Assembly: GCA_000004985.1 (NCBI GenBank)
Contig: GG738889.1
Source: Naegleria gruberi
Lineage: Eukaryota
DNA: 64,000 nt
Reading direction: 5' to 3' (one strand)
Shown here: positions 9,641 to 41,200 of the stretch, piece by piece
How positions within the stretch are numbered: the stretch's first letter is position 1
Layout: every line of letters starts with the position of its first letter
The notes under the pieces: model-generated
The model's database searches: none
Told to the model about the DNA's origin: nothing
Seen by the model: only the letters and a program-made list of their open reading frames with translations
Position numbers and translations under genes: made by a program

Positions 9641-12600
9641 TCAATATCACATCAATAGAAGGTCGTTTACCTGGCTCATGACTCCACATCTGGCGAATCA
9701 CTTTTGTCATTTCAAAAATCAATTCATGGTGAATTACTTGTTCCTTATCAAGAAATTCCTCACACCATTTCTTACACTCTTCACAAGTTGAGAATGGAAT
9801 GATTGGCCTCAAATTCTCCTCACAAACACTCTTATGGAAGTGATACGAACTACTAAATGGTGTTGGTTTGGTGATTTTCAACTTTTTGAGAACGTTTGGA
9901 TCTGAGCTATGGTAAGGTTCAATAATTTCGAATAATAATTGCCACATAATGATGGCCAAACTGTAGATATCAATAGAACGGGCGTCCTCTCTCTCAATTT
10001 CACCAGAGAAAAGCTCCGGAGCCATAAATGAGCTGGTTCCAATCTGACTGGTAATTGCTGAAATTGTGTGAGAACAAAAAGCTCGTCCTAATCCAAAATC
10101 ACACAGTTTGGCAGTTCCACTTTTATCGAGAAGGATATTGGCTGGTTTCAAATCTCTATTCCACAAATGAAAGATTATTTTAGGTGAAATTTAGTATTAA
10201 TACATACCTGTGGACAATGAAATTCGGTTCCAAATGATGCAAATAATAAATTCCACTCACAATGTTCCTCAATATTGCCAATTTTTCATTGAGAGTGCAT
10301 TTGGAATAGCCACGTTGCATGGATGCAATCATTGCCTCTAAACTCTTATCCATGCACTCCATGGCAATGAATCTCTTTGTTGGTGTCGATGAAACACCAT
10401 AGAAATTGATAATATTTGGATGCCTTAATTTGCTTAATAAAATTGCTTCCACTTTGAAATCATTTTCTGAAATACTCAAATTATTCAAATCGAATACCTT
10501 GACTGCAATTGTCATTCCATTGAATTTGGTTGCAAAAACAGAACCCATTCCACCTTCTCCGAGTCTCTTGATTGGTTTGTCCATATTGAGTTGTTCTATT
10601 GGAATGATGAATTTATCTGCCTCTTCCACATAGTAAGAACTAGATCCCATACTTGATTCATAATGGTCCAACAATCTTTCATCTAAAACCAGATCAGTTT
10701 CAGTCAGTTTCTTATTCTTTCGTTTTACAGAAATATACGAAATAAAGATAATGAAACAAATGGCAGTAACGATGAGTAAAACAATGGCAGATGAGAGTCC
10801 CAATCCGAGGGCAATCGTGTTGATACTACAATCCTTTCCAAAGTAGGAAGATTGACAAAGACACTCATCCTGTTTTACACATGTTCCATGTCCTGAGCAA
10901 GCACTTGATCCTGATTGACCAAAACAAATAGCAACCCCACAATCTTTTCCTGTATATCCACTATTACAAACACAATTATCTGGTGCTGTACAAGATCCAT
11001 TTCCATGTGAGCAAACTTCCACAGATGTCTTTGGATAATTAAAGCAAATTGGTAATTGACAGTTATTGCCAAAAAAACCTTGATTGCAAGAACATTGATT
11101 AATATCGAAACAATTTCCGTTTCCACTACACACTGATTCTGAAATATTTGCTGGTATTCCAAAACATATTGGAATACACATTGTCAAATCTCTACTCAAA
11201 AGGTAACCCTCTCTACAAAATGGTGTCAGTTGTCTCACGACATTTTGAGTAGAATCTGATAAGTAAATCGATCCAGAACTAGGGGAAATTGTAAATCCTT
11301 GTGGAGATGCCAAATAATCACTCGTTGCCAAAATTTCATTCAAATCCAATTCTTTCACAGTTGAATTTCCAGCAATTGTGTAAACTAGATTAATTCCATT
11401 TCGTCTACTTATTTTCCTAATCATTGCATTCAGTGAATCAATGAAAATAATATCCACAAAATCAGGAGGTACCAATTTCACTATAGTTGGATAATTAAGC
11501 TCTGCCTGTTCAGCAATTCCATCTATGTATCCAGGATTTCCACTGCCTGCAATGGTGGAAATTGATCCATTCACATGAATCATTCTAATTCTATTATTAT
11601 TCGAATCGGCGAATATAATTTCATTATCCAAATTGATGGCAATTCCGGTTGGCTGAGCCAAAAGTGCAGACTTAGCATCATTTGAATCTCCATTAAAACC
11701 ATATCCCTTTCCTGCAATTGTTGAAATTATTCCATTTCTATCAATCTTTCTAATCTTGTTATTTCCAAAATCGGTCACATAAATTTCTCCATTGAGAGGA
11801 GAAACAGAAACCGCATAAGGTTTAATTGAAGCATAGGATGCCAATCCCTTATCACCTATTCCACCAACTATAGTCTTGACGATACCAGTTTTAAAATTGT
11901 AAAGTTTCACCAAATTACTGTAAGTATCAGCAATTGCCAGATATTGAGTTCCACCACTTGGTAACTGGAGATATCTGACGCTTGAAGGATAGCTGAGCTT
12001 GGATTTGATTCCCAATCCCTCCTCAAATTCTCCACCTCCAATCAATGTATCAGCAATTCCAGTAGAAATCGAGACAGTCCTAATCCTATTATTATTAGTA
12101 TCAGCTATAAACATGGTATTCTGTGAAATGGTTATACTTTTAGGGAGATAGAGTTCCATATTTCTAACAAATCCACCGTCACCTCCATTACCAATTTCAC
12201 CTGTGCCTGCATAGGTATCTGTAACACCATTAATAGTGGCATATCGAATTCTGTGATTACCCGTATCGGCAATGCAAATCATTTGGCTATCTACCACGAC
12301 AACATCCTCAGGAAAGCTCAATTGAGTTTCAGTTGATAAAATATTATCACCATTGAATCCTTCATGTCCAGAACCAGCAACTGTCTTTACCATTTGAGAT
12401 GTACTACTGCCCAAGTAAATTGATCTAATTCTATGATTTCTAGAGTCGGCAACCAGTAAAACTTTATCAGCAGAGTCAATATGAATTCCTTTTGGCTATA
12501 GAGTTTGTAAATATTGCAAATTATCAAAAATTTCAAACTTACACTATTAAATGTTGTGTTCAACAGTGTGTTATCTCCATTAAAACCCTTCACTGTTGGT

Positions 12601-14393
12601 ATTCCAGCAAATAGTTCCAATTTTCTAGTTCTAATATTCACTCGCCACAAACAATGTTTTTCACTATCTGAAAAATAAACATAATTACTTATATAGGCAA
12701 TGCCAACTGGAGTGCCAATACCACTGTCCTTTGAAACCAGTGTTTGGGATATTCCAGTACTAACATCTACCATTAAAACTCTATAATTCTTTGTGTCTGA
12801 AACAAATAGAGTGACATTCTTTTCGAGATTGTAATTCACTACTGCAACACAAACTCCTTGTGGACTGTTGAGAACTTCTGATAAACCATCAACCATTTGT
12901 GTATTGGTTGAATTAAAGAAGAATGATCCAGTCATTGGTTGAGATTCTAGAGTATTCAAATTGAATTTCACAAGAAAATTCGAAGCCCAATAGTTAATAT
13001 TATTAACTACGAGTAAGTTTGATTGGTGATCAGTGGTAATTGATATTGGATCAGTAAATATAGGAATCTTACTGTGTAATCCACGTTTCAAATCTAATAG
13101 AGAAGTGCTAATCCTTTCAGATATTCCACTCATAAATGAATATTTCAGTAAACGAGCTGATTGAGAATCAGAAATCAGCAATTCCTCTTCTCCATTCTTA
13201 TTCTTAATAATGATCAAATCTTTTGGTGATCTGAGACCAGTCATTGTTCCTCTGGTTTTTTCAGCAAAGGGAACCCTACTCGAGTAAATTGTTGAAATTA
13301 ATCCTGACCTTCTATCCACCATTCTCATTTCATCTGAAACATCCACAAAAACAATTGCTCCTCCAATGGAAATTGTGACTGATATTGCATTGGTTATTTG
13401 AGCTTCAATGGCTAGCCCTCCATCGCCCAATGATCCTGTGTTTGTTCCCTTAATGACATGTTCGAAAACTCCCATTTCGAGTGAATTCACACTTTCATCC
13501 TGATTGTAAACAGTTGTAAATTTCTTAGATGTCACTGCTTGAGGTCCAGAAAAATAAAAAGTTTCTTCCACAATCGTATTAAGTCCATTTTGATATGTTT
13601 TCAAAGAGGTAACATCAAAAGCAAAAGACATACTATTCCTACAGTCAAAAACAGTACGTGTTCCATTTCTGAATATTCTTTCACCTTTTGATTGAAGTAA
13701 AACTTGCCATTCATCTCTTTCATTAATGATAATTCCTTGAATTGACTCTGAAAAAGTCCTGTACAGAGATACATAACCATTCCTTAACAAGAATACATTG
13801 TAATCTTGTGTGAAATAAACATCAATTTCATCCATATTCGAATACTTGTTAATTGGAACGGAGATTGTTTGGGGATAAATAGAAATTGATGTGGCATTCA
13901 CTTTTTCTGTGGAATCCAAAAATTTACATTGACCATCTCCAGCCAAAGTTGTGATCATTCCATCTGCAGTGTTTAGTCTCTTCAAAAAACAATCCGAATA
14001 GAAATAAATTAAATCAATTGCTCTAGTTGACGACGATTGAAAGGAAACAACCTGAAACTTGGGCCAAACATTGGACCGAACAAAACTGATATCACCTGTT
14101 TCAATGTTCAATTTTGCAAGTTGATATCCTTCACTACCTGTGTTTGATGTGAAATAAATAATGTTTGGATCAACTTTTGAGAACATTGCCCTCGCAGCAA
14201 CGCCAGACAGCTGGTTCTTCTTCTCCAAATATCCAATAACAGGTTTTGATTTATATTGCACAAGTCTCTTCCGAACTAAACTTTCCGTTGTTGGTATTTC
14301 TTGTTGACAAAAAACTGGTGATGTGAAAAACAATGTCACGATTAAAAAACACATCAAAACAGATGCCTCTTTACTGAAAGATAATGATGACAT
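9606..14393 (-). CDS. Receptor protein kinase with an NHL-repeat beta-propeller ectodomain, EGF-like Cys-rich modules, one TM helix and a TKL-like kinase domain, about 1562 aa. It has 3 exons: 14393..12543, 12495..10208 and 10155..9606.
   Basis: A signal peptide (MSSLSFSKEASVLMCFLIVTLFFTSPVFCQQE) is followed by multiple NHL-type repeats (…YVTDFGNNKIRKI…, …IFADSNNNRIRMI…, …IADTNNNRIRTV…). Next come EGF-like modules (CSGNGNCFDINQCSCNQGFFGNNC…CVCNSGYTGKDC…CLCQSSYFGKDC), a TM helix (GLSSAIVLLIVTAICFIIFISYI) and the kinase. The kinase carries GEGGMGSVF, AVKV, HRDLKPANILL (with the HR|D codon split by an intron), DFGLG and APE. The introns are 47 nt (12496..12542, GTAAGT..TAG) and 52 nt (10156..10207, GTATGT..TAG). 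Confidence 0.85.
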
Positions 14394-14413
14394 TTTTTTC
14401 ACTCTCTTACAAG

Positions 14414-17400
14414 TTATTTATTATTGGAAGGATTGTTAGGGGTATTCAAGTCTGAAAGTTTTCCAATGAAAGATGAACGAAGTCTACCAGCAGTGTTTGT
14501 CAATTTTCCTGCAATGGTAGCACCTCTTTCTCTGAGTGATGGTGTAGATAATCCATTGTTTGGTTGACCTGTGGTTGGTCGTTGGTTTGGTGGTAAAACT
14601 GGAAGTGTTGGGAGATTCTTTTGTGGGATGGTTGGCAATGGTTTTCTATCATGGTCATCAGTAGGAGAACTAGCTCCATTATTATTGGCTAGGAGTTTGT
14701 CTTTACCAGAAAAGCTCAACACTGTTTCAAGTTTGATTTCACCTGTTTGAGCAGGAGAAACTTCATCTTGAGGTTCGGTAAGTTTGTCTTGCAATAGTTT
14801 GGTTTGCAACTCCAAATTTTGCATTTGAAGGTTTTGGTTTTGTTGTTTTAACTCCGCCAACTGCACATACAAATCAGAAATGATATTCTTCAATTCTGCA
14901 TTGACTAATTGTTGGTCATTAATTTCACCTCTGACGATTTGAGCTGATTCACCCTTCTTTTCCATTTTGAGAGCTCTCTCAGTTTGTTGAATTTGTCTCT
15001 TTACAAGTACATTATACTCCTTCTCAACCTTTCCCTTGTCGATTTGAGTCTTTTGTAAATCTTGTTGTAATTGAATGATATGTTCACGAAGAGTTCTATG
15101 AAGAGCATTTGTTTCCTCTTGAGCCTTCTTGAACTTTTTCTTTTCTTCCTTTAGTTTAAAGTCCAAATCGGTAATCTTTCTATCTCTGAGATCACATTCA
15201 GATTGTAATTGTTTGGTCAAGTGCTTTTGTTGGTTCAGCAATTTACGTGTTTCACTCTCCTGAGTAAGGTAAGTGGAGATACTTTGCTCACGGTTTTCCT
15301 GCTCCTTTCTAAAAGATTGGATATATTCATGGAGTTGACTGAATTCAACTCTGAGAGAAAATTCTTCTTCAGCAGCAACACGAAGAGAATTCTTGATAAT
15401 TTCGAATTGCTTTTGCATGCCTCTCAACTCACGATTTTGATGTTCAATACTTTCATCTGTTAAAACTCTATTAACAATTTCTTCATTCTTCTTATCATCA
15501 ACTTCTTGCTTCCTTGTTTCAAAGAAATCTCTGCCAATATCTGTTTGAACACTCATGTCAATACGCATATTTTTGATACGGAGTTCTTCAATTACTCTAG
15601 CACTTAATCTAATCCAGTCTGCAAGTTGGTTAGGAGTTTCTGGATAGATGAAAAGTCTCTTTTCATTACCATTAATGATGGCCAAAACTTCCTTTGGCAT
15701 TGGTTGATTTTCTTCAATTGGTACTTGTGTCTTGATATACTCTGTTGTATCAGACAAAGCCATATGATAGAACAAGTACTTATCAATGGCATTTGTAGAA
15801 TCCTTTACAAAGCTTTGAGGTGGAAGTTTTTGAGTGAGACACAAAATTTCACAAGTATCTAACAAGACACAGTGAATTCTCTTGAAAGTATTTGAACTGT
15901 GAGTGAGTACTTTACAAGGTCCTTCAATAAGAATATTCTTCTTATTGTCATCAACTTTTGGTGTGTTGGTAACAGCTTGGGGTTGTTTAGAAGGAGTCTT
16001 GATAGATGATTGTTGGTTTTGCATATCGGCCAATACTTCTGTAAGGTGAATCTTACTCTTGATGGCTTCATTCAAAGCTTCTGTCTTATCATTGAGTTCA
16101 GAGTGCATATTATTGAAAAGTCTTGTCAAACTATAATGTTCAATAAGAGTCTTTGTGAAGGATCTTTGTGATTCTGCTATTAAATCTCCCAAATTTTGGA
16201 ATTTTTTGATAATCAAGAGAGTCTTCTTATCAGCAAACATGGCAAAATAACCTTGTAACATATCTGCCCATTGTTTGATATCCTTGAATTGGCTTCTCAA
16301 GAGCTTGGAAATTACATAAACCATCTCTGGTTTGATTTCAATACGCAAAGAGTTCTCTGAATGTCCAAGGGAAGGATCCATAGCTTGGAACCAAATACCT
16401 CTCTTACTCAATGGCTTGGTATAATCATTGATAAGTCCAATCATCCAATCAACTGGTGCCGAGGTGAGTGGAACAACTTCCAAATTGTCAAATGTTGAAG
16501 TCTTTGGAGCACTGTTAATATCATCCAATGACTTGAAAGGAACACCAGTCTTAATCAAACAGTGAACATTTGTACCAGTACCATAGAGCTTGAGTTCATA
16601 TTCATGAGATCTATTACTAAAGCTTTGAACAGGTTGTTTTGATATTCTGTCCAAATGTTCAATACGGTAGAGACTATCAAACATTGGTAGGGTAGCACCC
16701 TCCATGATACTTCTTGTTGGCAAGTGAGTGACCCCCAATGTCTTGATTTCCACACCAACAGCATTTGGTCCTTGACCTTTTCCGATGACATAAACTTCAA
16801 CCTCCTCAAGAGAAATGTCGAACAACATTGGATAGAAAGTTTGGTGAGTGGTGGCCAAGAATTCTTGAACTGTCTTCTTGTCCTCTTCCTCCTCCGTAAG
16901 TTCTTGTTCCTCTGATTGTTCTTTAACAACTTGTGGTTTCTTCTTTGTATCTTTGATCTTTTTAGCAACAGTCTTGATGACTGGAATTAATTCAGTCTTG
17001 ATGGTTGGAATGATTTCTTCCTTAATGACTGGAATAATTTCAGCAGTACTTTCTTTGGTTTTTCTCTCAATTTTGGCAGGTTCTATGGTACGAATTGTTG
17101 GTGTGGAAATGCCTGTTGCTATGGAAATAGGTTCTGGCTTTTTCTCTGACGAATCAACTTCCACAGAAACAAATGAGTCAATTTCTTTCATTGTCAATGT
17201 TAGAGTTGGTGTTTCCTTTGGAGTATCGAAGGCCGATTCTGAAGTAATAATCTCAAATGAGTCATCACCTTCTTCGGTATTCATTTCTTCATCAGTCAAT
17301 GGTTCTTCATCCTCTTCATCCTTTTCTGAAGGTGAAGTAGCAGCCGATTTCGACTCTGCTTCCTGTCCAGCTACTTGTGGTAAAGAAGATTCTTGTTGTT

Positions 17401-27522: not shown

Positions 27523-30500
27523 TTATTCTCTTTTAAATGTAATGGTGCCCATTGTTCTATCCAACATTTCAATTCTTTGGTCTTCATAGTCAGCACTACA
27601 CACAGATCTCAATTCATCTCTATGATCCAAAGTTGGCACAATACTCACCATTCTAGTAACATTTTGAACTTTGTATCTTCTAGAAATTATAATTAAGGCA
27701 ATAATGGAACTAACACAGACAAACAAGACGGCAACATAACCACCAATGACAGAACCAACAATAATACCAACCAAGTTGATATACGTAACTGGAATACTAC
27801 AATCCTCTCCAAGATAACCCAAATCGCATTTACAAACACCACTCAAACACTTGCCGTTCAATGAACAGAAGTTTGGACATACCAAAACTGCTGTGCATGA
27901 ACCATTATTGCTGCATGAATCTTGAGCAACGGCTGTAGCAGAAGCCATAGCATATTCAACCAAACCAGTTGACAAGACATCGAACATACATGATTCGTAG
28001 AATGATGCTGTCAATCCCAAACTATTACAAGCCTTTTCAGCCAAAGCTTGTAGAGTAGCATTTTCCGAAGAGGCCTTCATAATAGGCTTAAAGTCAAGAA
28101 CATTAAGGTCTTCATATTGAGATCCAACAGTATAAGTAAAGAAGGATTCATTCTTTGAAATTCTCCAACTTTCACCAAAAACTTGGTGAATTTGTTCAGC
28201 AGTAGGTGAAGGAAGAACAGTACCATCTCTCAATGTAAATTCATTGTCCTTATTTCCATCGAGTGTACCATACAAACCTCCAAGTTCAGTACCAGTAAAG
28301 TTAACATCCTTTGATGGAGCAAATGAAACAGCCAACCATCCAAGTCCATCATTTCTCAATTTGATTTGACCCTTGAAATCACCACTATACTTGACAGTAA
28401 TGGATTTGTAATAAAACTTCAAACCATTAACCATGTAATAACTTGATGTATCATCTTCTTGGGTAATTGTGGCACCTCCATTCAAAACAAGAATTGGGGT
28501 ATCTGGTTCCTTATACACAAGTTGTGATTCTGTGATATTGGCAACTTGGTTAGTGTCTGGATCGACTTGACCCTTAATTTGTTCTACTAACTTTTGAAGA
28601 TCCTTTGGAATTTCAAACTTGGTATCAGCTTCAACAGGTTGAACATTGACTTTTGTTTCATTGAGATAAACTTGAACATCATTGACAAGAACCTTAACAC
28701 CAGTCTTACCATCAGACAAGATTGAAACCTTATCCGATCCGCTCATGAATGAAATACCCTTCATACATGATGTCTTTGAATCTGCTGTACATTTCATCAA
28801 TCTACCTTGTAATCCCAATTCATTAGACTTGTACAAGTAGAATTCACCAATTGAATTGAATGTATATTCTGCAGCATCAACAGTTCTAAGGTGAATATCA
28901 CCAAAGGCCAAAACCTTATTGACCAAATCAAATATGTGAACAAGACTACAATCTGATCCTCCAAAACCTGGGAAACAAGCACAAGTATTTGGACCAACAC
29001 AAGTACCTCTTCCTCCACACCAATTTCTATGGACACAATGGAATGATGAACAGGTTTCAGTGTACCAACCCCATCTACAGACACATTCATTTGGTCCAAC
29101 ACATTTACCTCTCTTAGCACCACCACAACTTGATCTATTAGCACACAAATCAGTATCAATGACAGCAACACAATTAGATCCAGGAGGAACATAGGTAGCC
29201 TCTTCAATATAGACAGTTGCTTCCTTCTTGACTGGAAGAGTGACAATATTATTCTTACAATCATAAGTAGTTAGACCATCTGTGAAATTGGATGGTGAGA
29301 GATTTCTAGTTGGTGAACCATCAGTAAATTCAATCTTAACTTTCAATGGTCCCCATTTGACAAATCCAATGGAAACACTCAAAGTTGTGGAACCTTGCCA
29401 ATCGAGTCTTATCTTTTCAGGTGTACCAACAACACCAAGCCAATCAATGGAATATCTATAGATACCATAATCCATGTAAAGTGCTCTGTACCACCATTCA
29501 CCCCAATATTGCAATCTACCATTCAACTTTTCACTATATCCATTAGTACTATTCACTCTAGCTCTATCAATACCATTGGTAATGGCTGGAGTTGTAATTT
29601 CAAATCTCTTGAAATTCACAGATTCGTCACAAATGAAAGCATTCCATTCCTTAACATAGGCACACAAAATTGGATCGACCATGATCATAGTACTTGGAAT
29701 AATTCTAGCACCAGCTCTTCTGATTTTAGAAGGTACAGTAATATTTCTAGATAAAGTGCCGTCAGTATCAATAATAACTTCATGTCTATAAACATCAGAC
29801 AATGATGATTCCTTAGAAGCCAAACCAGCAAGTAAATACATAACGTTAGCATTGTGGAAATACATTCTATTGGTAACATAATCACCTTGATTCATTGAAG
29901 CCCAATCATCATTTCTAAGATCAATGGATGATAGCTTTCTTTCACAATTATCAACAAAATCAAAGAATTCCAAATCTTGAAGAAGTAAAGTATTACCATC
30001 ACGATGATATAAAACACCGATAAATGGATCATTTCTACTGTATGAAGGAAGTGATCTATAATATGGTGAGGATGGATTCTTGTAATCAGTTCCACATCTA
30101 TAACATTGACCATCATTACAATTATTTGGATTACCCTTATTTTGTGTAAAACCAATAAAGATGGCACCACTAACAACAATTGGACTCATAATGATATTAA
30201 GGACAGTATAACTAACTGGATTGTCTGCAAAGATACTTCCCTTCAAATTGAGTTTTCCTTGAACGTGGGAGTATTGACCATTTTGTCTATTCTTCCAAAT
30301 GTTCATATTCTCAAATACTGGTTCAGACCAAGGATTCTTATCAGTACCACAATTAGTTGAATCATACATTTCCATCTTTGGATTTGTGCATGTGTAAAAG
30401 TTTGGATACAACATCATACCATGTTGATTATTACTGTGGGCAGTGTTGTTAACAAATTGTCCCCAGTACCATCTATTAGGTCTAATATATGGAGTTTGAG

Positions 30501-33500
30501 AAGCACCTGTAGCATAGGAATCCAAATGATACCAGAAACCAAAAGCATCACTTCCAGCTGCACGATTTCCAATGAAAATATTGTTTGGATTGGTAATGTA
30601 GAAGGTGGCTGGATTATTGTCTTGATTGTCTGGAAGCATGACAGATCTTGAATCTGGAATGACCTTTGAAAGTATACCAAGATTATTTTCGAAAATGTTA
30701 TACTGTTCAGCACCATCTTCAAGGAAGAAAGTATGTCCATAAATATTGAAAGCAACAACTCCTTCAACGTGTAAATAATTGGTTCCTTGCAATGCAACAG
30801 CTCTTTGATAGGTATCATAGACTGAAACCTTGTGGACATAGGAAGTATTGGCATCACCAAACAATTGGAAGTAAATTGGATAACGACCTGGAATACCAGC
30901 TTGACCCATTCGTGTGAATTCAACATTATCAAGTCTGACATATTGAGCAGTTCTGAGGAAGGCAGTGTGACCACCAAACATTGAATCTTCACTTGTTGCC
31001 AAATCACCTCTAATCTTAATATTGTGCGATAACAAACCAACTTCACCACGTTCATCAAATGTAACAACAGTTCCATTAGCCTTTTGATAGTATTCTGTAT
31101 TGGCATAGTGACCATAGACGAGTGGTTTAACAAATCCAAAACATGTACTATTGAAACGGACTGAAATTGTTCTTCTTTCAGCTTGATTGTGATAGTAATC
31201 AGTGGAAGCTAGAACAATTTCATCACCAACTTGCCATTCAGTTGGTTGTTTAAGATGAACGGAAGTATCACCAACTTGAGCTGATTTACCCAACAAAGTC
31301 CAAGAAACTTCATGTTTCTTACCATGCAAGCTCAAAGCACCTCCACTGGTTACAATGATATTCTTAACACCAAATCCAATTAAAGTTCTATTGAGATTTC
31401 TTTCACCGTGAAGTGTAATTGTGGCATTGTGTTGATGAGGGCTGGTTTCATTACCTATTTGGAGAGAACCAGTAACAATCATCGATTTAAAGTGCATTTC
31501 CAAATCAAGCTCATCACTGAAAACTAAACAACCAAATACATGAACAACGTCCAATTTTGGAGGAATGACATCCAAAATAACAGTATAGTTTTCTGGAACA
31601 ACCAAAATTCTTTCGGGTTCAAGATAGAGAGAATCATCCTCTTCTTCTTCATCAATATAGTTGTTGGTAGAATTGGTTGTAGAGTTGGTGGAATTGTGTG
31701 AAATGAGAGTATTATTAACAAGAATGAATGTTGAATTATCGCCATAGCAATTTGTAACATTGAAAATGGTTCTATTAAGGGAACAAACTGTTGAGGTATT
31801 TACAGTAATTTGATTACAGACAACACTGGTAACATTCTCTGAAATGTAGGTAGTATTGCTGCAGTTTGAATTAGTTACTGAAATACACATGGCATCTCCA
31901 TTGGAACAAGTTGAACAATTAGCACTATCACAAGTGAATGAATCAATATGAGTGAAGATGACACAATCAGTATGGTTTGTATAGTAGAATCCATCGAATG
32001 TTGAATTCGTATAACATTCAGTGGTGTGTTCTGTAGCATAACAGTCATAGATATCTTCACGAGTAATCTCAGTTGTGCAATTGGTAGTGCTATTGAATTG
32101 AGAATCATCAATATTTGAACTATTGCTATTGGATGTATTGTTAGAATCAGTTGTTGAACTATTACCAATAGTTGAGTTACCGTCAACAGTAGAGTTATTA
32201 TCAGTTGTTGAGTTTCCAGCAATTGTTGAGTTATCATTAGCTATTGTGGAGTTATCAGAAGTGGAATTGTTAAAGGTGGAGTTATCACTTGTAATAGTAC
32301 CATTATTTACAATTGTTGAATTATCTGAAGTGGAATTATTTGAATCAGTTGTATTATTACTAGTTGTGGAATGATCAACTAGAGTAGAATTACTTCCATC
32401 AATATTGGTGGAATTGTTATCACCAATGTCAGTACTATTATCAACATTTGTTCCATTATTATTATCAACTGTGCTATTATTGTCAGCTGTATTGTTGTTT
32501 TGAACAGTGGAGTTAGAATCGAGAGTTGAATTGTTTTCACCAATTGTACTGAAATCACCAACAGTAGCATTACTACCATCAGTGGTGGAATTATCAACTA
32601 GAGTTGAATTACCATCGATTGTGGAGTTATCACTTGTTGAACTATTAGATTCAGCTTGAGCAGTAATATTAACACAAGTTGTTGAAATACTCAAAACANN
32701 NNNNNNNNNNNNNNNNNNNNNNNNNNNNNNNNNNNNNNNNNNNNNNNNNNNNNNNNNNNNNNNNNNNNNNNNNNNNNNNNNNNNNNNNNNNNNNNNNNNN
32801 NNNNNNNNNNNNNNNNNNNNNNNNNNNNNNNNNNNNNNNNNNNNNNNNNNNNNNNNNNNNNNNNNNNNNNNNNNNNNNNNNNNNNNNNNNNNNNNNNNNN
32901 NNNNNNNNNNNNNNNNNNNNNNNNNNNNNNNNNNNNNNNNNNNNNNNNNNNNNNNNNNNNNNNNNNNNNNNNNNNNNNNNNNNNNNNNNNNNNNNNNNNN
33001 NNNNNNNNNNNNNNNNNNNNNNNNNNNNNNNNNNNNNNNNNNNNNNNNNNNNNNNNNNNNNNNNNNNNNNNNNNNNNNNNNNNNNNNNNNNNNNNNNNNN
33101 NNNNNNNNNNNNNNNNNNNNNNNNNNNNNNNNNNNNNNNNNNNNNNNNNNNNNNNNNNNNNNNNNTATAGTAGAATTGTTGTCTATTGTTGAATTGGAAT
33201 TGGTAGTTGAATTATCAACATTAGTGGTATTATCATAAAGCGTTGAATTGTCAACGTTAGTAGAGTTGTCCATTGTGGAATTGGAATCAGTCGTTGAATT
33301 ATTAACATTAGTGGTATTATCACCTGTGGCTGTTGTTGAATTGTTCTCCACTGTTGAGTTATAGCTAACTGTACCATTTGAATCTGATTGTGTTGAATTG
33401 GAAAGTGAGTCGGTAGTGTTTTGGACAGTTCCATTATTAGTAGAAATGGTCGAATTATCAGTAGAATTATTAGATATCGAGGTGTCATTCAAACCAGAGG

Positions 33501-34641
33501 TACTATTATCAACACTTGTTGAATTATCTATTTCTGTAGAATTGGAATCAAAAGTGCTATTAGAATCAATTGTAGAATTATCAATATTGGTATTATTGGA
33601 ATTATTACCATTATCAATATAAGTATTGTTATTATTAGTATTATCATCAGTGTTAGTGGAATTACCAGTATGAGTAGAATTATCTCTGGAAGAATCATTA
33701 ATAAAATGTGTATTATTATTCCCAATAATGGATGAATTATTCACAAGTGAGGAATTGCTCACAACTGTTTCATTCTTAACAATCACTGGATCCATGTATT
33801 CAGTCAAATTTCCATACAATTCAGACCACTTGATCACTTGTGATGGACAATTATCACCAATACCATGTCCATATGGATTCAACTTGGTTGTTGTGAAAAT
33901 AATTGCTTGATTACCAATACCATAACTATTATATCCAGTAAACTTGTTATATGGAAGAATTCTAAAACTGTAAGTCTTGTTTTCATCCAAATTATATCTT
34001 GTGAAATTATTGACATTATAAGATTTGTAAGTAATAGTAGTATATCCAACTGCATTCAATGTAGACATTTGAATTTGGATATAACAAATAGTACTAGCAG
34101 AAACATCTGGCATTTTCCACTTTAACAATACACTGTGATAGGTTGGAATTGCTCTAAAATTGTAAATGCTCGCAACTGATGATGCAGAAGGGAATGGAGC
34201 AACACTTGAATTATTGCCAGGATCAGACAAGTCCTTCAGGTTGTATCTTCTTGTTGGAGGACCTCCATAGTACCACGAACAACAAGGATCACCCAATTCA
34301 TCACCATTGGTTAAGCCATCTCCATCAGAGTCCTTCATGCAGAGATCAGTGTTCCAGGCATAATTGTTATTCATGAAATCTCTTCCGAAAGATGTTAAAT
34401 TACCATCCTTTTTGAAAATGTTCTGAAAGAGAGGTGAATTAGCAAAGGTGAGACCATTAGGAAGTTTGGCCACATCAAAATCCAAAGCAGTTACCATTCC
34501 CATACAGCAATAGAAGGAAATTACAATTCCTATCATGATCATTAATATCCTTGAGGATGAGGATGACCAAGACAGCTGATGTCTTGCTGTATTCTTCTTC
34601 ATCCTGTTATCATCATCATTCCCGAACAAGGAACGCATCAT
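27523..34641 (-). CDS. Giant membrane glycoprotein of about 2370 aa with a TMEM2/CEMIP-like domain arrangement. The order is an N-terminal signal-anchor, an FN3-like region, an N-glycosylation sequon array, a G8 domain, a right-handed beta-helix region, EGF-like modules, a VWD-like domain, more EGF modules, and a C-terminal TM helix.
   Basis: The G8 region (…GSLQIGNETSPHQHNATITLHGE…GGALSLHGKKHEVSWTLLGKSAQVGDTSVHLKQPTEWQVGDEIVLASTDY) and the following RYPIYFQLFGD…HVEGVVAFNIYGHTFFLEDGAEQYNIFENNLG…NPNNIFIGNRAAGSDAFGFWYH are collinear with TMEM2/CEMIP. The EGF modules are CVCRWGWYTETC and CACFPGFGGSDC. The VWD-like motif is GGLYGTLDGNKDNEFTLRDG. The TM helix is GIIVGSVIGGYVAVLFVCVSSIIALIII. The ORF is uninterrupted except for the N-gap 32689..33165. 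The first ATG is at 34641, with a possible signal-anchor IMIMIGIVISFYCCMGMVTA. Confidence 0.85.
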   Translation of the reverse strand: MMRSLFGNDDDNRMKKNTARHQLSWSSSSSRILMIMIGIVISFYCCMGMVTALDFDVAKLPNGLTFANSPLFQNIFKKDGNLTSFGRDFMNNNYAWNTDLCMKDSDGDGLTNGDELGDPCCSWYYGGPPTRRYNLKDLSDPGNNSSVAPFPSASSVASIYNFRAIPTYHSVLLKWKMPDVSASTICYIQIQMSTLNAVGYTTITYKSYNVNNFTRYNLDENKTYSFRILPYNKFTGYNSYGIGNQAIIFTTTKLNPYGHGIGDNCPSQVIKWSELYGNLTEYMDPVIVKNETVVSNSSLVNNSSIIGNNNTHFINDSSRDNSTHTGNSTNTDDNTNNNNTYIDNGNNSNNTNIDNSTIDSNSTFDSNSTEIDNSTSVDNSTSGLNDTSISNNSTDNSTISTNNGTVQNTTDSLSNSTQSDSNGTVSYNSTVENNSTTATGDNTTNVNNSTTDSNSTMDNSTNVDNSTLYDNTTNVDNSTTNSNSTIDNNSTIXXXXXXXXXXXXXXXXXXXXXXXXXXXXXXXXXXXXXXXXXXXXXXXXXXXXXXXXXXXXXXXXXXXXXXXXXXXXXXXXXXXXXXXXXXXXXXXXXXXXXXXXXXXXXXXXXXXXXXXXXXXXXXXXXXXXXXXXXXXXXXXXXXXXXXXXXXXXVLSISTTCVNITAQAESNSSTSDNSTIDGNSTLVDNSTTDGSNATVGDFSTIGENNSTLDSNSTVQNNNTADNNSTVDNNNGTNVDNSTDIGDNNSTNIDGSNSTLVDHSTTSNNTTDSNNSTSDNSTIVNNGTITSDNSTFNNSTSDNSTIANDNSTIAGNSTTDNNSTVDGNSTIGNSSTTDSNNTSNSNSSNIDDSQFNSTTNCTTEITREDIYDCYATEHTTECYTNSTFDGFYYTNHTDCVIFTHIDSFTCDSANCSTCSNGDAMCISVTNSNCSNTTYISENVTSVVCNQITVNTSTVCSLNRTIFNVTNCYGDNSTFILVNNTLISHNSTNSTTNSTNNYIDEEEEDDSLYLEPERILVVPENYTVILDVIPPKLDVVHVFGCLVFSDELDLEMHFKSMIVTGSLQIGNETSPHQHNATITLHGERNLNRTLIGFGVKNIIVTSGGALSLHGKKHEVSWTLLGKSAQVGDTSVHLKQPTEWQVGDEIVLASTDYYHNQAERRTISVRFNSTCFGFVKPLVYGHYANTEYYQKANGTVVTFDERGEVGLLSHNIKIRGDLATSEDSMFGGHTAFLRTAQYVRLDNVEFTRMGQAGIPGRYPIYFQLFGDANTSYVHKVSVYDTYQRAVALQGTNYLHVEGVVAFNIYGHTFFLEDGAEQYNIFENNLGILSKVIPDSRSVMLPDNQDNNPATFYITNPNNIFIGNRAAGSDAFGFWYHLDSYATGASQTPYIRPNRWYWGQFVNNTAHSNNQHGMMLYPNFYTCTNPKMEMYDSTNCGTDKNPWSEPVFENMNIWKNRQNGQYSHVQGKLNLKGSIFADNPVSYTVLNIIMSPIVVSGAIFIGFTQNKGNPNNCNDGQCYRCGTDYKNPSSPYYRSLPSYSRNDPFIGVLYHRDGNTLLLQDLEFFDFVDNCERKLSSIDLRNDDWASMNQGDYVTNRMYFHNANVMYLLAGLASKESSLSDVYRHEVIIDTDGTLSRNITVPSKIRRAGARIIPSTMIMVDPILCAYVKEWNAFICDESVNFKRFEITTPAITNGIDRARVNSTNGYSEKLNGRLQYWGEWWYRALYMDYGIYRYSIDWLGVVGTPEKIRLDWQGSTTLSVSIGFVKWGPLKVKIEFTDGSPTRNLSPSNFTDGLTTYDCKNNIVTLPVKKEATVYIEEATYVPPGSNCVAVIDTDLCANRSSCGGAKRGKCVGPNECVCRWGWYTETCSSFHCVHRNWCGGRGTCVGPNTCACFPGFGGSDCSLVHIFDLVNKVLAFGDIHLRTVDAAEYTFNSIGEFYLYKSNELGLQGRLMKCTADSKTSCMKGISFMSGSDKVSILSDGKTGVKVLVNDVQVYLNETKVNVQPVEADTKFEIPKDLQKLVEQIKGQVDPDTNQVANITESQLVYKEPDTPILVLNGGATITQEDDTSSYYMVNGLKFYYKSITVKYSGDFKGQIKLRNDGLGWLAVSFAPSKDVNFTGTELGGLYGTLDGNKDNEFTLRDGTVLPSPTAEQIHQVFGESWRISKNESFFTYTVGSQYEDLNVLDFKPIMKASSENATLQALAEKACNSLGLTASFYESCMFDVLSTGLVEYAMASATAVAQDSCSNNGSCTAVLVCPNFCSLNGKCLSGVCKCDLGYLGEDCSIPVTYINLVGIIVGSVIGGYVAVLFVCVSSIIALIIISRRYKVQNVTRMVSIVPTLDHRDELRSVCSADYEDQRIEMLDRTMGTITFKRE
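31900..33700 (-). repeat. Coding low-complexity tandem array of about 15-nt-period units encoding (D/N/S/T)-N-S-T, that is dozens of N-x-S/T sequons. It includes the N-gap.
   Basis: On the coding strand it reads …NSTIDSNSTFDSNSTEIDNSTSVDNSTSGLNDTSISNNSTDNSTISTNNGTV…. On the plus strand it appears as the reiterated gaattg/gttgaatt/attggaatt motif. Confidence 0.85.
32689..33165. other. Assembly gap of 477 N inside the sequon-array repeat of the G8 gene.
   Basis: A literal run of n flanked by the NST repeat on both sides. Confidence 0.99.
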
Positions 34642-35426: not shown

Positions 35427-37068
35427 TTATAATACCTTTCTAATCCTATTATTTTTAGTATCTGCAATGTAAACAGCACCATTTGACTGAACTGCAATTC
35501 CACATGGATCATTGAGAGATGACAAGATGGCAGGCCCATTATCTCCATCAAACCCAGCTCCGCTTCCACCAGCAATTGTTGAAATAGTTTTGGTTGTTGG
35601 ATTAATCTTCTTAATTCTTGCATTAGACTTGTCAGCAACATAGACATCACCATTTGGACCAATAGCAATACCAAAAGGTGAATCCAAGCATGCAAACTCT
35701 GTTGTGGATGGGAATCCTGGACGACATCCACCAGCAATTGTAGTCATGGTATAATAACCATTTTGAACTACGACTTGTCTCACCGTATTGATCAAATTTT
35801 CAATAAAGTAAATCTTTCCTCCACTTGCTGCAACACTTATTGGGGATGAAATCTTGATATATTGAGCAAGTCCTTCATAAATTAAATTGGGTTGTATATA
35901 AGGAGAGTATGTGTAATCTGTTCCAGCAACAGTGTAAAGTTTTGAAGAGGTAATTTTTCTAATCTTTGAATTATTAGTATCTGCAAAGTAAACAGTATTT
36001 GAACTAGATTGATCCACAGCAACACTTGTTGGATTATTCAACGATGAAGCAATGGCTGATAATCCGTCATACAAAGGACTACCAGCATCACCATCCCCTG
36101 CAATGGTAGAAATCTTTCCATTTGAGATTGTAATCTTTCTAATTCTATGATTTTGGCTATCAGCAATATAGACATTTCCAATCGAATCGAGAGCAACACC
36201 TGTTGGTGAGCTTAATTTAGCAGTTGTAGCAATGATATTGTCTCCGTTATAACCTTCCTCTTCTGTTCCAGCAATGGTTGAAAGCTTTCCAGTAAGTGCT
36301 GTGAATTTTCTAATTCTATGATTTTGAGTGTCTGCAATGTAAATATTTCCACTAGAATCCACTGCAATACTTGTTGGAAATAGAAGGGAGGTAGAAGTTG
36401 CTGCTCCTGAATCTCCACCATATCCAGGCATACCATTACCCACAATGGTTTTAATTTGAGGTAACAAAATGTTGGTCAAGAATTGAGAAACGCTCACTGA
36501 ACTAGATGGATTAGCCAACCTGTTTATCAAACCCCATGCGGAAGAGGAATTCGACTTTTTGTAAAGGAATACTACTCCATTATCAACCATGTCTGGTGCG
36601 CCAACTAAGAGATAGTTACCATTGGATGAGAAGGACAATAAACCGCCAAAAGATTGTTCTTCAGAATCAATGGCAAATTCCAATGCACAACTATCATTTT
36701 CCACACATGAGAAAATTTCAACTCTATATTCATATCCAAGCACCAATTGGTTGGATAACATGGCTGCAGAAGTAACGTTCGAGACTGAGACATCCATCTC
36801 CTTATACCATTCAAAAGTGGATGTGGAATACTTGTAAAGGGATACTATTGATTCTTGAATGGAGACTACTCGTTGATAGTCCTGAGAAAAGAGAGCTGAA
36901 ATAACTTGGACTGGTGTATCTAATATAATTGATGAGGTGCTTCCATTATGAACTGTGAGTGTATCAACGTCCCATGTGAGTGTGAGTTGTTGTTACTTGG
37001 GTGAAACTACCAAGAGTCAATAAGAGCAGCATCATGATCACTGTTACCATAATATGTAATCGCTTCAT
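35427..37068 (-). CDS. Secreted NHL-repeat beta-propeller protein of about 520 aa. Its 5' structure is uncertain.
   Basis: The 456-aa ORF carries more than 6 NHL repeats (…IYIADTQNHRIRKF…, …VYIADSQNHRIRKI…, …VYFADTNNSKIRKI…, …VYVADKSNARIKKI…, …VYIADTKNNRIRKV). An upstream signal-peptide ORF (MKRLHIMVTVIMMLLLLTLGSFTQVTT, ATG 37068) lies in a different frame. The two join either through a short intron or, more likely, a 1-nt frameshift near 36990. Confidence 0.65.
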
Positions 37069-38282: not shown

Positions 38283-41200
38283 TTAATCGCTGTTATTCAT
38301 GAATGGACCCAAAGCTTCATCATAGGCAAAGGAATAAATTTCTTGCATGTCATCATTATCTAGGAATGGCTCAAAGAATGATTCATTTTGAAGAGATGGC
38401 TCTGCATTCATATTTGGAACAGGAGAAGCAAGTCCAAAACCTAGATTATTTCCCAAATTCAAATTTAAACCGCTACCATTAATCATGTCTTGCCAGTTAA
38501 TAGTAGGAGGATCTACCATTTGATTTTGAGTTCCCATATTGATAGGATTATTACTCTTGTTATTATTCTTTGGATTGGCAATAACTGAGAAAAAGTCCTT
38601 GGTATTCTTAACATTTTGGAATTCGGAAAATTCTGAAAGATTGTAGTGACTAAATATATCATTTGAAAATCCACTCAAAGGATTAGTAGTGGTAGTGCTT
38701 CTATTGGATGTATTGGAAACGGTAGGAAGACTACTAGTTGTACTACTAGGAGTGGTGCTATTGGTGCTATTAGAACTGCCAATACTGGTGGTTGGAAGAG
38801 AGCCAGATGAAAAGTTTTGAGTGAATTGTGGCAAGTCAGTTGGTTGTTTGCTTCCATCATTCAGAGAGTGAGAAGTGAATAAATTGAGAGCACTCATCAA
38901 GTGTTTTCTATTGATAATTTCCTCCATTTCTTGCATAAGTGTTTTGTGGAAGAGAGAAACTTTCTTATATCTCTTGGAGAGAATGTTCAAGGCTCTCAAA
39001 TCTTTGGCCAAAATCTCATAATAGTCAACAGTACCAACTCGTGGTTCCTCACCATAGTTGACTGTTGGTACCATCATTACCTCTGGATTTTGACGTTCTC
39101 CAGCCTCAATAGACTTGACGATGTGAAGGTGAACTTTGGCAGCTGCTGCAACGTGAGCAACAATTGGTGGTGGCACAAAGAGGAATAACTCATTCTCTGT
39201 ACCAAATGTAATTTTGAGAGCAGACTCTTCAATCAATTCCTTTCCACGATTGACAGCACTCAAAATTCCTAATCTAATGCCATGGAATACAATAGTTGAT
39301 CCCATATCGAAAATCTTCAAGTTTCTTTCACTACCAGTCTTTGTGAGATGCATTCTTACGATGTGTAAAAGTGTCTCTACAACCTTGATCATTGTGGAAT
39401 AGTTATTTGGTGTCAAATCTTGCTCGAGTAATGTTCTCCATTCGGTAGGTATTTGAATACCAAGTGTCTTTTCGAATACATTTGGCCAATCCTTCAAGAG
39501 AGAAAGCACACCACTATCATTTGATGAACAGACTTTACAAAAACTTCTAATCTTTTTGAGATTTTTCTGATAGATTGTCAAATTTTGTTGTTCTTCTTCA
39601 CTGAGCTCATCAAGGTAAAAGTTAACAGACTGTAAATAGTATTTGGCAGTCTTTAGTCTTCCACATCCTGACTCGTAGATGCACATGAATGCATAACAAC
39701 AACTCACGTAAAAATTTGAATGTTCATCAAAGAATTTGGATAGAGCTTCTCTAGCTTTTTTCATTGTTTCTTCAGCTAAATCTGAAAGACCAGTTCTTTG
39801 CTCGCAAATGGCCTTAATAGCTAAAAACATGGCATATACTTCCTTCTTGTTTGGCATGATATCATTTCCTTCAGTAATAATTTCTTCATCGTCATCCTTT
39901 GAGTTATTTGACTTAGAAGAGAGATATCCTTCAAAGTCTTTTCTTTCAATTACTGGCATACCATTACCAAAAATGTTAAAGTACAAATCTAGTACCTTTC
40001 TCTTGTCAAGATGTTTTTCTGGTGTTTTGGCAATATTTCCATAGGGTGTTTCAGATGATAAAATGTTTGCCAACAACTTGGTTGTGCTTGAATGAAGAGG
40101 TTTCACTCCAGCATTAGTAGTATTGAAGATACACATGTTCATTTCGGAAATTCTTCTAACATCAACATCTGCCATTTGAGGTGCTGTATTTGTTGAAATT
40201 CTGTCCAATTCTGGAGGGTTCATTGAAACTCCTTCCCATGATGGTAGAGATGAAGCAATGTCCCTATTGCTTTGGTCACCTTCAGTAGATGTTTTTGGTT
40301 TGGCTGTTCTTCCCTTTTTTCTTGGGATTTTATATTCACAATTTACTCCTCTCGAAACACATTTTGAACAGGCTGGTAATTTCCTATCCTATAATTTCAA
40401 AATTCAATATTATAATCCAAATATGATAAGAGATATCAAAAGTTAGTACTCCAAATAATTGTTTAAATACTAATACGTACACATCTTTTGTGTAGACGAC
40501 GGCATTGTACACAAGCTATTGGATGGAATAAACCTCCACTCTCATCTCCTTCCATTTGCATCTCCTCATCTTCATCAGATTCTGGAGCAACTGGTTTTTT
40601 CTTCTTCTTTTTCTTTGATTCTTCTACGTGTTGTCCATTACTTCCACTACTACTCGAAAGGGATGATGAGGATGTTGGTGATGTCATTGGTAGGTTGTTG
40701 TTGCTGCTACTTGTAATATGATTATTAATATTATTCAGCAAGGTTGAAATCTTGTCCGAAGATGCTGATTTTGATATTTGTTGATTGGCATTTGCTGATG
40801 TTGTGTTGTTTGTTCCTGCTGATGAATTACCCAAGAGTGAAGAAGAACTTGTTGATGGTGCTAATAAACCTCCCTTGTTCTGGTTTGGCAATCCAAGTTG
40901 TTCCAAATAGTAAGAGAGTGAATCTGCCAGAGGTGTTGATGCTGGTGGAAGGGGTGAGACAAATGCTGATGGATTGGTGCTATTGCTATTTGAGGAGGAA
41001 CTTCCTGGAGTATTTACATTGGCTGACATTGCATTCAGGAGGTTGTTATTGCTATTGGTATTGTTGTTATTGCCAGAGAAGAGTCGTTGATAGTAGTGTG
41101 CCATTTCGTCGGAAGCCATCGTAGATGTGGATCCATCCAATAAATTAAATAGAGAAGGTTGATTGGTGGCACCACCTTGTTGCTTTTCGAATTGGTGTAG

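Follow-up and report, generated by a model that had tools for sequence, protein, structure and literature searches.

Among described proteins built on a G8 domain, TMEM2 (CEMIP2) is a type II membrane protein and CEMIP/HYBID is secreted. In TMEM2, Niu et al. described a small sandwich and a lectin-like (GG) domain 1, and the latter holds the residues reported to be needed for activity (R265, D273 and D286), as well as R187 of CEMIP (PMC10206443). The hyaluronidase activity of TMEM2 is disputed: the same authors could assign no active site and found the purified ectodomain inactive (PMC10206443), whereas Narita et al. report intrinsic activity (PMC10474455). G8 proteins are also already known from protists and bacteria. 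Here we describe a G8 protein encoded on the minus strand of Naegleria gruberi contig GG738889.1 (assembly GCA_000004985.1), at 27523..34641 of a 64,000-nucleotide stretch, hereafter the window. The gene is public and carries automatic Pfam labels. New are its heterolobosean domain architecture, a correction of its gene model, the replacement of conserved histidines in its core, and a repeat domain made of N-glycosylation sequons (N-x-S/T). Our preferred reading, to which we give a probability of about one half, is that the gene encodes a divergent, probably non-catalytic, heavily N-glycosylated surface paralogue with a binding, adhesion or coat role, in which the function of a histidine cluster, the putative functional site of the family, has been given up or changed.

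The minus-strand open reading frame (ORF) is unbroken from its first ATG at 34641 to its stop at 27523-27525, in a window with ~34% G+C. It has 2372 codons if the assembly gap is counted as 156 X, and the ~2216 sequenced codons contain neither a stop nor a frameshift. We conclude that this is one intronless gene for a type I cell-surface glycoprotein; the topology follows from an N-terminal signal-like segment and a C-terminal transmembrane segment followed by RRYK. A single type I membrane protein was also what an earlier first-pass annotation, made from the letters alone, had called here, leaving the strand unstated. Amino acid (aa) numbers for domains count from the ATG at 34641. The features on which the argument turns are:

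27523..34641, minus strand: entire coding sequence, 2372 codons (156 of them unknown) and the stop.
31291..31617, minus strand: G8 domain, aa 1009-1117, the first turns of the beta-helix (Pfam PF10162, E 5e-26; aligns to the G8 domain of TMEM2).
29188..31614, minus strand: beta-helix core with a C-terminal sandwich of the 'domain X' type, aa 1010-1818.
30415..30978, minus strand: CEMIP_beta-hel match, aa 1222-1409 (Pfam PF24606, E 3e-63).
30787..30873, minus strand: four replaced histidines, Y1257 (TAC), Q1259 (CAA), Y1275 (TAT) and Q1285 (CAA), at core positions 248, 250, 266 and 276.
32095..33819, minus strand: N-glycosylation sequon array, aa 275-849, an 18-nt degenerate repeat (hexapeptide x-D-N-S-T-x) interrupted by a gap.
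32699..33165, no strand: assembly gap within the array, a run of 467 N in the sequence.

The G8 match scores 91.4 bits against a curated cut-off of 22.9 and is followed by CEMIP_beta-hel, the two forming one right-handed parallel beta-helix; both had been recognised in the first reading and are borne out by Pfam. An AlphaFold2 model of aa 1010-1899, built from a 64-sequence alignment, has a mean predicted local distance difference test score (pLDDT) of 86.3 and a predicted template modelling score of 0.86. As many as 694 of the 890 model residues align to the TMEM2 structure 8c6i, against 300-370 for the next-best fold matches, plain beta-helix enzymes and adhesins among which are capsule depolymerases, GH87 enzymes, alginate epimerases, NosD, PL6 lyases and tailspikes. 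Because of this difference from plain beta-helix proteins, the model indicates that the helix and the domain X sandwich are common to the Naegleria protein and TMEM2.

The GG domain claimed earlier did not hold up. The alignment to 8c6i falls into two blocks, query 40-123 on chain 76-164 and query 134-535 on chain 340-785. The construct carries 23 extra N-terminal residues ahead of TMEM2 residue 106, and with this offset the unmatched chain stretch corresponds to TMEM2 residues ~247-421. These make up the small sandwich and lectin-like/GG domain 1 of TMEM2, and a 10-residue connection takes their place here; no ILEI/GG match was found in the Naegleria protein by Pfam at E<=0.1. The second GG/lectin-like domain is absent as well, with EGF, VWD and EGF modules following domain X instead. 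The conservation of catalytic acidic residues proposed for TMEM2/CEMIP, which the first-pass annotation had suggested as a check, thus has no target here, since R265, D273 and D286 lie in a domain that this protein lacks.

With the core as query, an exhaustive search of 1.84 billion cluster representatives returned 5581 relatives at E<=1e-3, of which 1463 reached E<=1e-30. Once the heterolobosean-type proteins are set aside, two groups score best, at 330-360 bits and 36-38% identity: fibrocystin-type proteins and bacterial G8 proteins. TMEM2 scores 155 bits. In fibrocystin-like proteins (PKHD1/PKHD1L1 type) the G8 domain is likewise continuous with the helix, with no GG insertion, and it is here that the top scores outside Heterolobosea are found, over core positions ~4-470. 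However, these proteins are 2000-4600 aa long and all three that we scanned by Pfam carry TIG/IPT repeats and two G8 + CEMIP_beta-hel units, whereas the Naegleria protein has one unit and no TIG match; its domain X, Temptin_C, FN3, VWD and sequon array were not seen in the fibrocystin-like proteins as far as these were scanned. Bacterial G8 proteins (~800-1100 aa in the search; ~800-900 aa, for example, in Deinococcus sp. YIM 134068 and Pirellulales) are collinear through G8, helix and most of the sandwich (32-35% identity over ~660 residues) and share the same invariant residues, but are soluble or secreted and built of the G8-helix unit alone. By sequence comparison, the core is a GG-less unit of the type common to bacterial G8 and fibrocystin-like proteins, related more distantly to TMEM2 and CEMIP. 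The earlier label 'TMEM2/CEMIP family' is therefore too narrow: besides the scores, both lectin-like domains of TMEM2 and CEMIP are missing, and the type I orientation is opposite to that of TMEM2.

Transfer of the core from bacteria was considered, but the heterolobosean sequences cluster together and are about as similar to bacterial as to fibrocystin-like proteins, so that no direction can be drawn from them. Neither the core nor a bacterial homologue is covered by a model in NCBIfam. The genes around one of the bacterial homologues, from Deinococcus, include no carbohydrate-related partners and offer no hint of function. Literature searches on Naegleria and G8, the N. gruberi genome and CEMIP structures returned nothing relevant.

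The full architecture, from Temptin_C to the tail, is found in N. fowleri FDP41_006486 (P0002), N. gruberi NAEGRDRAFT_73885 'FM171' (P0003), a protein from a Logan assembly (P0004), Willaertia magna ABK040_005245 (P0005) and, in part, in P0121 and P0223. The core was aligned with 63 homologues at first and with 119 in a second round. All 119 have histidine at core positions 248, 250 and 276, and 110 have it at position 266. The Naegleria protein has Y248, Q250, Q276 and Y266, which turns the family motif RYPxHxH into RYPIYFQ and VHG into LQG. It also has Y339 and S468 where the homologues have an invariant W339 and G468. Seven heterolobosean relatives, P0121 and P0223 among them, retain the histidines, and TMEM2 keeps all four that are replaced here (approximately H550, H552, H575 and H585 by our count). 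Sequencing error was considered as the source of the changes and rejected, as they affect four codons in different places, each by a clean substitution that leaves it one base away from a histidine codon.

The replacements do not look like part of a general decay. At the 140 columns conserved in at least 95% of the 115 non-heterolobosean homologues, the Naegleria protein departs from the conserved residue in 32, compared with 28-29 in its relatives. It has six genuine deviations of its own, and three of these are histidines 248, 250 and 276. A deviation count close to that of the relatives, with half of the unique changes falling on these histidines, argues against broad erosion. Of the invariant polar motifs of the superfamily (RYPxHxH, VHG, GHxFFLEDGxE and others), the first two are altered here.

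In the model, the strands run at 247-254, 273-279 and 296-298 with alternating hydrophobic residues, a register that would stack H250, H276 and E299 into a ladder running from coil to coil along a single sheet and facing outwards, next to which H248 would lie. The outward face of a sheet is the usual site of the ligand groove in beta-helix enzymes. The histidines were also read in a wider set of 356 matched stretches from 149 other best cluster representatives (P0122-P0269 among them). Most are HHHH. Patterns such as ALHF and AVHF occur in a minority, mostly from proteins of more than 2000 aa, although even among stretches of these long proteins most retain the four histidines. The loss of histidines from G8 beta-helix stretches is thus a recurrent state in the superfamily. 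The TMEM2 structure 8C6I contains one Ni2+ ion, on whose location the paper does not comment.

The second distinguishing feature is the sequon array. Its sequenced parts (aa 275-492 and 649-849, together 419 residues) contain 75 N-x-S/T sequons, or 17.9 per 100 aa, against at most 7 per 100 aa in any other ORF of the window. The two parts hold 39 and 36 sequons, where composition-preserving shuffles average 20.5 and 18.0 (z 5.9 and 6.0); no such shuffle attains the observed counts. Between 71 and 78% of asparagines in the array sit in sequons, compared with 20-21% in the remaining ectodomain. The block had been described before as far denser in sequons than is typical, and at twice the shuffle mean it is. 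NST accounts for 37 of the 75, and the commonest spacing is 6 residues. Since 13 sequons overlap a neighbour by one residue, general knowledge of the oligosaccharyltransferase suggests that the usable sites are probably nearer 60. The underlying DNA is a degenerate 18-nt repeat with copies 60-87% identical. The array lies between the signal peptide and the transmembrane segment and is thus predicted to face the lumen. The Alg/OST pathway is complete in N. gruberi (PMC4973528, Table 1).

Comparison with the relatives points to a lineage-specific insertion. At the position of the array, the linker is 157 aa long in the N. fowleri protein and 139 aa long in FM171, with 12 Cys and 12-14 sequons apiece, while Willaertia has only ~15 residues (by inspection). 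In the Naegleria protein the linker is 740 aa (156 unknown), with 13 Cys and 91 sequons. Given this difference in length, the alignments identify the array as an insertion that only this paralogue has, with the FN3 module on one side and the 12-Cys module on the other. Like a mucin domain, it is an ectodomain stretch of long, degenerate tandem repeats of low complexity, rich in Ser/Thr, of lineage-specific length and hard to assemble. It differs in that its unit is the N-x-S/T sequon rather than Pro/Thr/Ser; it may carry N-linked glycans, O-linked glycans or both. A protein-database search with 201 aa of the array returned nothing at E<=1e-3 and missed even the deposited model of the same gene, probably because composition filters removed the matches, and is uninformative. 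Nothing relevant came from a literature search on sequon-repeat domains.

How might such a protein work? We propose that it enters the secretory pathway. The array, an insertion of at least 420, probably ~575 or more, residues of N-x-S/T repeats with a hexapeptide period, separates the Temptin_C/FN3 head from the beta-helix. N-glycosylated at perhaps 60 or more sites, it would act as a spacer of the 'bottle-brush' kind, stiff, hydrated and resistant to proteases. With H-x-H, H and H changed to Y-x-Q, Y and Q on successive coils, the ancestral histidine-dependent chemistry would no longer be performed, and the helix may instead serve on the amoeba surface in binding or adhesion, or have an altered specificity. 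The VWD/EGF stalk and the conserved tail would anchor the protein. The loss of the histidines together with the gain of a very long sequon stretch makes a sugar-coated binding or adhesion protein more likely than an enzyme.

Several observations weigh against this account. Many invariant residues are retained, namely D139, E146, H169, R189, E191, H216, R244, Y245, P246, R271, H294, E299, D300, E303, N306, H393 and D464. The ladder is placed by strand register and hydrophobic alternation in a predicted model, and the histidine-less state is seen in one assembly of one strain. No active site has been assigned for any member of the superfamily (PMC10206443). This, together with the dispute over TMEM2 activity, leaves room for the histidines to be structural, or metal-binding without being catalytic. 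Finally, the frame across the 467-N gap is arbitrary, as the gap length is an estimate; the shared frame of its flanks is thus no evidence that the ORF continues through 32699..33165.

Is the protein, then, an active extracellular enzyme of the TMEM2/CEMIP type, degrading polysaccharide or remodelling matrix, with an array that only decorates it? This was the earlier reading of the gene, and it draws on a fold that matches TMEM2 and, next, polysaccharide lyases, depolymerases, epimerases and glycosidases. Most of the invariant acidic and basic residues are kept, including E299, D300, E303, D464 and R244, and the intrinsic TMEM2 activity reported by Narita et al. (PMC10474455) speaks for it, as does the lack of any assigned active site in the superfamily. 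However, three absolutely invariant histidines, W339 and G468 are changed in this copy alone, and the lectin-like domain 1 bearing the only residues shown to matter for TMEM2 or CEMIP activity is absent. One study, moreover, found the purified TMEM2 ectodomain inactive, with no assignable active site (PMC10206443). The histidine replacements in particular weaken the candidate-enzyme reading for this gene, and we consider it unlikely. Hyaluronan is not known from Naegleria.

A bolder version of the binding or adhesion reading can be put forward tentatively, and it too is unlikely. The histidine cluster, invariant from bacteria to humans (~H550, H552 and H585 of TMEM2, plus H575), could be the functional site of G8/CEMIP/TMEM2/fibrocystin proteins, acting through a metal or acid-base chemistry. 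The Naegleria gene would then be a natural knock-out, a pseudoenzyme reused as a coat or adhesion protein on an N-glycan 'bottle-brush', the N-linked counterpart of a mucin. Regardless of which version applies, comparison of 119 close homologues and 356 further stretches singles out a short ladder of invariant histidine and acidic residues along the helix, as well as one natural copy that lacks just the histidines of this ladder. The ladder offers a concrete target for mutagenesis in TMEM2 and CEMIP, and FM171 and the window gene form a paired control. A domain of 420 or more residues of hexapeptide-spaced sequons is unusual and may be useful for studying how the oligosaccharyltransferase handles dense sites. 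Since the pathogen N. fowleri belongs to the same genus, the array protein is also of note as a candidate for a major surface antigen or a component of the coat.

A further alternative concerns the extent of the coding sequence. The best database match, P0001 ('predicted protein [Naegleria gruberi]', 1829 aa), is 100% identical to our translation outside a spliced-out part. It starts at a downstream Met (MIMIGIV..., window 34542) and jumps from ...KWSE to FDNSTFNNST, treating 32287..33819 (1533 nt, gap included) as a GT..AG intron. Were this deposited model correct, the protein would have a short sequon stretch only, and the junctions do fit GT...AG (TT/GTATGG ... ACAAG/T). Nevertheless, the supposed intron of at least 1533 nt is open in the gene frame on either side of the gap: the flanks (654 nt and 604 nt) have 0 stops in this frame and 5-59 in the others. 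One repeat family is present on both flanks, all 28 start-to-start repeat spacings within them are multiples of 3, and the part of the array that P0001 retains as exon has the same degenerate 18-nt repeat as its supposed intron. The gene of a relative (P0004) is a single intronless 5.4-kb ORF. The open frames, the spacings, the shared exon repeat and the intronless relative together argue that the array is coding. Gene predictors must bridge a run of N by an intron, and we think from the sequence that the intron of P0001 is an artefact of such bridging; the deposited model is improbable as it stands. It drops ~510 residues of coding repeat, and surface glycoproteins of this kind are under-represented in annotation as a result.

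The gap does sit inside the array, as first described, though as 467 N at 32699..33165 and not 477 N at 32689..33165. Written at this length it happens to put both flanks in one frame, and mechanical ORF finders consequently give one ORF. The flanks are not near-identical repeat copies; that the gap is a product of assembly collapse is plausible.

The family shares a single order of parts: Temptin_C, FN3-like module, 12-Cys linker, G8/beta-helix with domain X, two EGF modules, VWD, EGF, transmembrane segment and a conserved tail. Against its members the Naegleria protein is 48-54% identical over 99% of a 1375-aa query, with the same Pfam set and the RMVSIVPTL tail motif. Core identity is 72% between FM171 and the N. 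fowleri protein, while the protein described here is 48-54% identical to every member and branches outside the others in a neighbour-joining tree; no closer relative was found in the databases searched. This pattern identifies the gene, at the level of sequence, as a divergent paralogue and FM171 as the conserved copy, orthologous to the N. fowleri gene. The N. fowleri orthologue of the conserved copy has no sequon array. The family has so far been found only in heterolobosean-type protists. We take the 'FM' prefix to come from the genome paper's list of N. gruberi genes that follow flagella in their phylogenetic distribution, an origin that, if so, would presumably fit kinship to fibrocystin-type proteins.

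Such divergence might also mark a decaying duplicate or incipient pseudogene, with the histidines lost under relaxed selection. The protein is the most divergent of its clade, and no orthologue in another species was found. Yet the absence of stops and frameshifts across the ~2216 sequenced codons, a conserved-column deviation (32 versus 28-29 of 140) like that of the relatives, and the conservation of domain boundaries, cysteines and tail motif leave us giving decay little credence. That the flanks of the gap come from different genes, joined in an assembly chimera, is hardly credible, for although the 467-N gap sits in a repetitive region, homologues carry both halves in one protein in the same order, and repeat family, strand and frame type are alike on both sides. 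Indeed, the Temptin_C-FN3 and G8-to-transmembrane parts are collinear in one protein in five to seven heterolobosean homologues, one of them encoded by the intronless 5.4-kb ORF, and the two halves thus belong to one gene, as the first-pass annotation had assumed.

Two side observations concern the conserved copy. The public model of FM171 (P0003) is short by ~24 VWD residues that all relatives have (at the junction AFGDIHLRTVDG/RLLKC) and has no N-terminal signal region either, so that it is probably wrong. A Logan contig of 8.5 kb (L002, SRR15442820) carries an intronless orthologue of the conserved copy, 1808 aa long, adjoining synaptobrevin and protein kinase genes; it looks heterolobosean.

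The remaining parts of the protein are:

34486..34548, minus strand: signal-peptide-like hydrophobic segment, aa 32-52, read from the sequence; homologues have ordinary signal peptides at the equivalent place.
34216..34416, minus strand: Temptin_C, aa 76-142 (Pfam PF24784, E 9e-21; matched in five of five family members).
33886..34170, minus strand: FN3-like beta-sandwich, aa ~158-252 (Pfam fn3, E 0.0025; PDB profile matches; low-confidence model).
31651..32094, minus strand: sequon-rich 12-Cys module, aa 850-997, the sole linker at this position in homologues; no Pfam match.
28945..29187, minus strand: two EGF-like modules, aa 1819-1899 (EGF_TEN and EGF_PEAR1L matches).
27913..28944, minus strand: VWD with an RGM_C/C8-like end, aa 1900-2243 (VWD, E 6.8e-8; RGM_C, E 8e-7).
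27793..27879, minus strand: membrane-proximal teneurin-type EGF, aa 2255-2283 (EGF_Teneurin, 27.3 bits, above cut-off; PDB profile match to teneurin EGF repeats).
27682..27783, minus strand: transmembrane segment, aa 2287-2320, a hydrophobic run followed by RRYK; position conserved in homologues.
27526..27681, minus strand: cytoplasmic tail, aa 2321-2372 (52 aa), with the motif RMVSIVPTL conserved across the family.

The N-terminal Temptin_C domain had escaped the first reading. Its loop DSDGDGxTNGDELGDPCC is invariant and has a weak likeness to EF-hand and TSP3 calcium loops. The FN3-like module of the first reading is a candidate FN3 domain, which Pfam places below its cut-off (18.4 bits against 25, E 0.0025). 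All five family members match fn3 weakly (best 2e-5), and a PDB profile search of the region leads to FN3 domains of titin, neogenin and contactin. In an AlphaFold2 model of the N-terminal region (seven strands, pLDDT 46, five-sequence alignment) the top 50 Foldseek matches are all FN3, which lends the assignment weak support.

The VWD domain and the several EGF modules, of which there are three, agree with the earlier description. Scanned alone, the C-terminal part gives VWD (PF00094) at 33.4 bits against a cut-off of 22.9, covering the first 89 of 156 profile positions only, and RGM_C at 28.8 bits; four of four family members match VWD. A PDB profile search of the same part returned the RGMB C-terminal region and EGF fragments but no full VWD structure, so that the VWD assignment comes from Pfam. 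A membrane-proximal VWD with a C8-like end adjoining EGF modules is also found in RGM, MUC4 and SUSD2. The domain starts with GDIH (28894..28905, aa 1913-1916), and all heterolobosean members have GD(I/V)H where RGM/MUC4-type proteins have GDPH; judged from these sequences, Asp-Pro self-cleavage at this site is unlikely in the heterolobosean VWDs. The tail of three homologues ends in YG(E/T/M)(L/V)LF, resembling a Yxx-hydrophobic sorting signal, where the Naegleria protein has MGTITF.

Elsewhere in the window, the beginning of a 701-aa ORF at 38286..40388 (minus strand) weakly matches the Zn(2)-Cys(6) binuclear cluster of fungal type, falling just short of the cut-off (E 7e-4). A second gap of 318 N (431..748) lies within a long ORF on the plus strand (3..4547), which is cut off by the start of the window. 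An NHL-repeat protein (35430..36992, minus strand) is encoded directly upstream of the G8 gene. The ORFs 10183..12495 and 12390..14417 (both minus strand) encode a receptor-like protein with NHL repeats, teneurin-type EGF modules and a protein kinase domain, and an adjoining, weaker TEN_NHL-like match. The teneurin-type EGF module of the receptor-like ORF is also used in the G8 protein.

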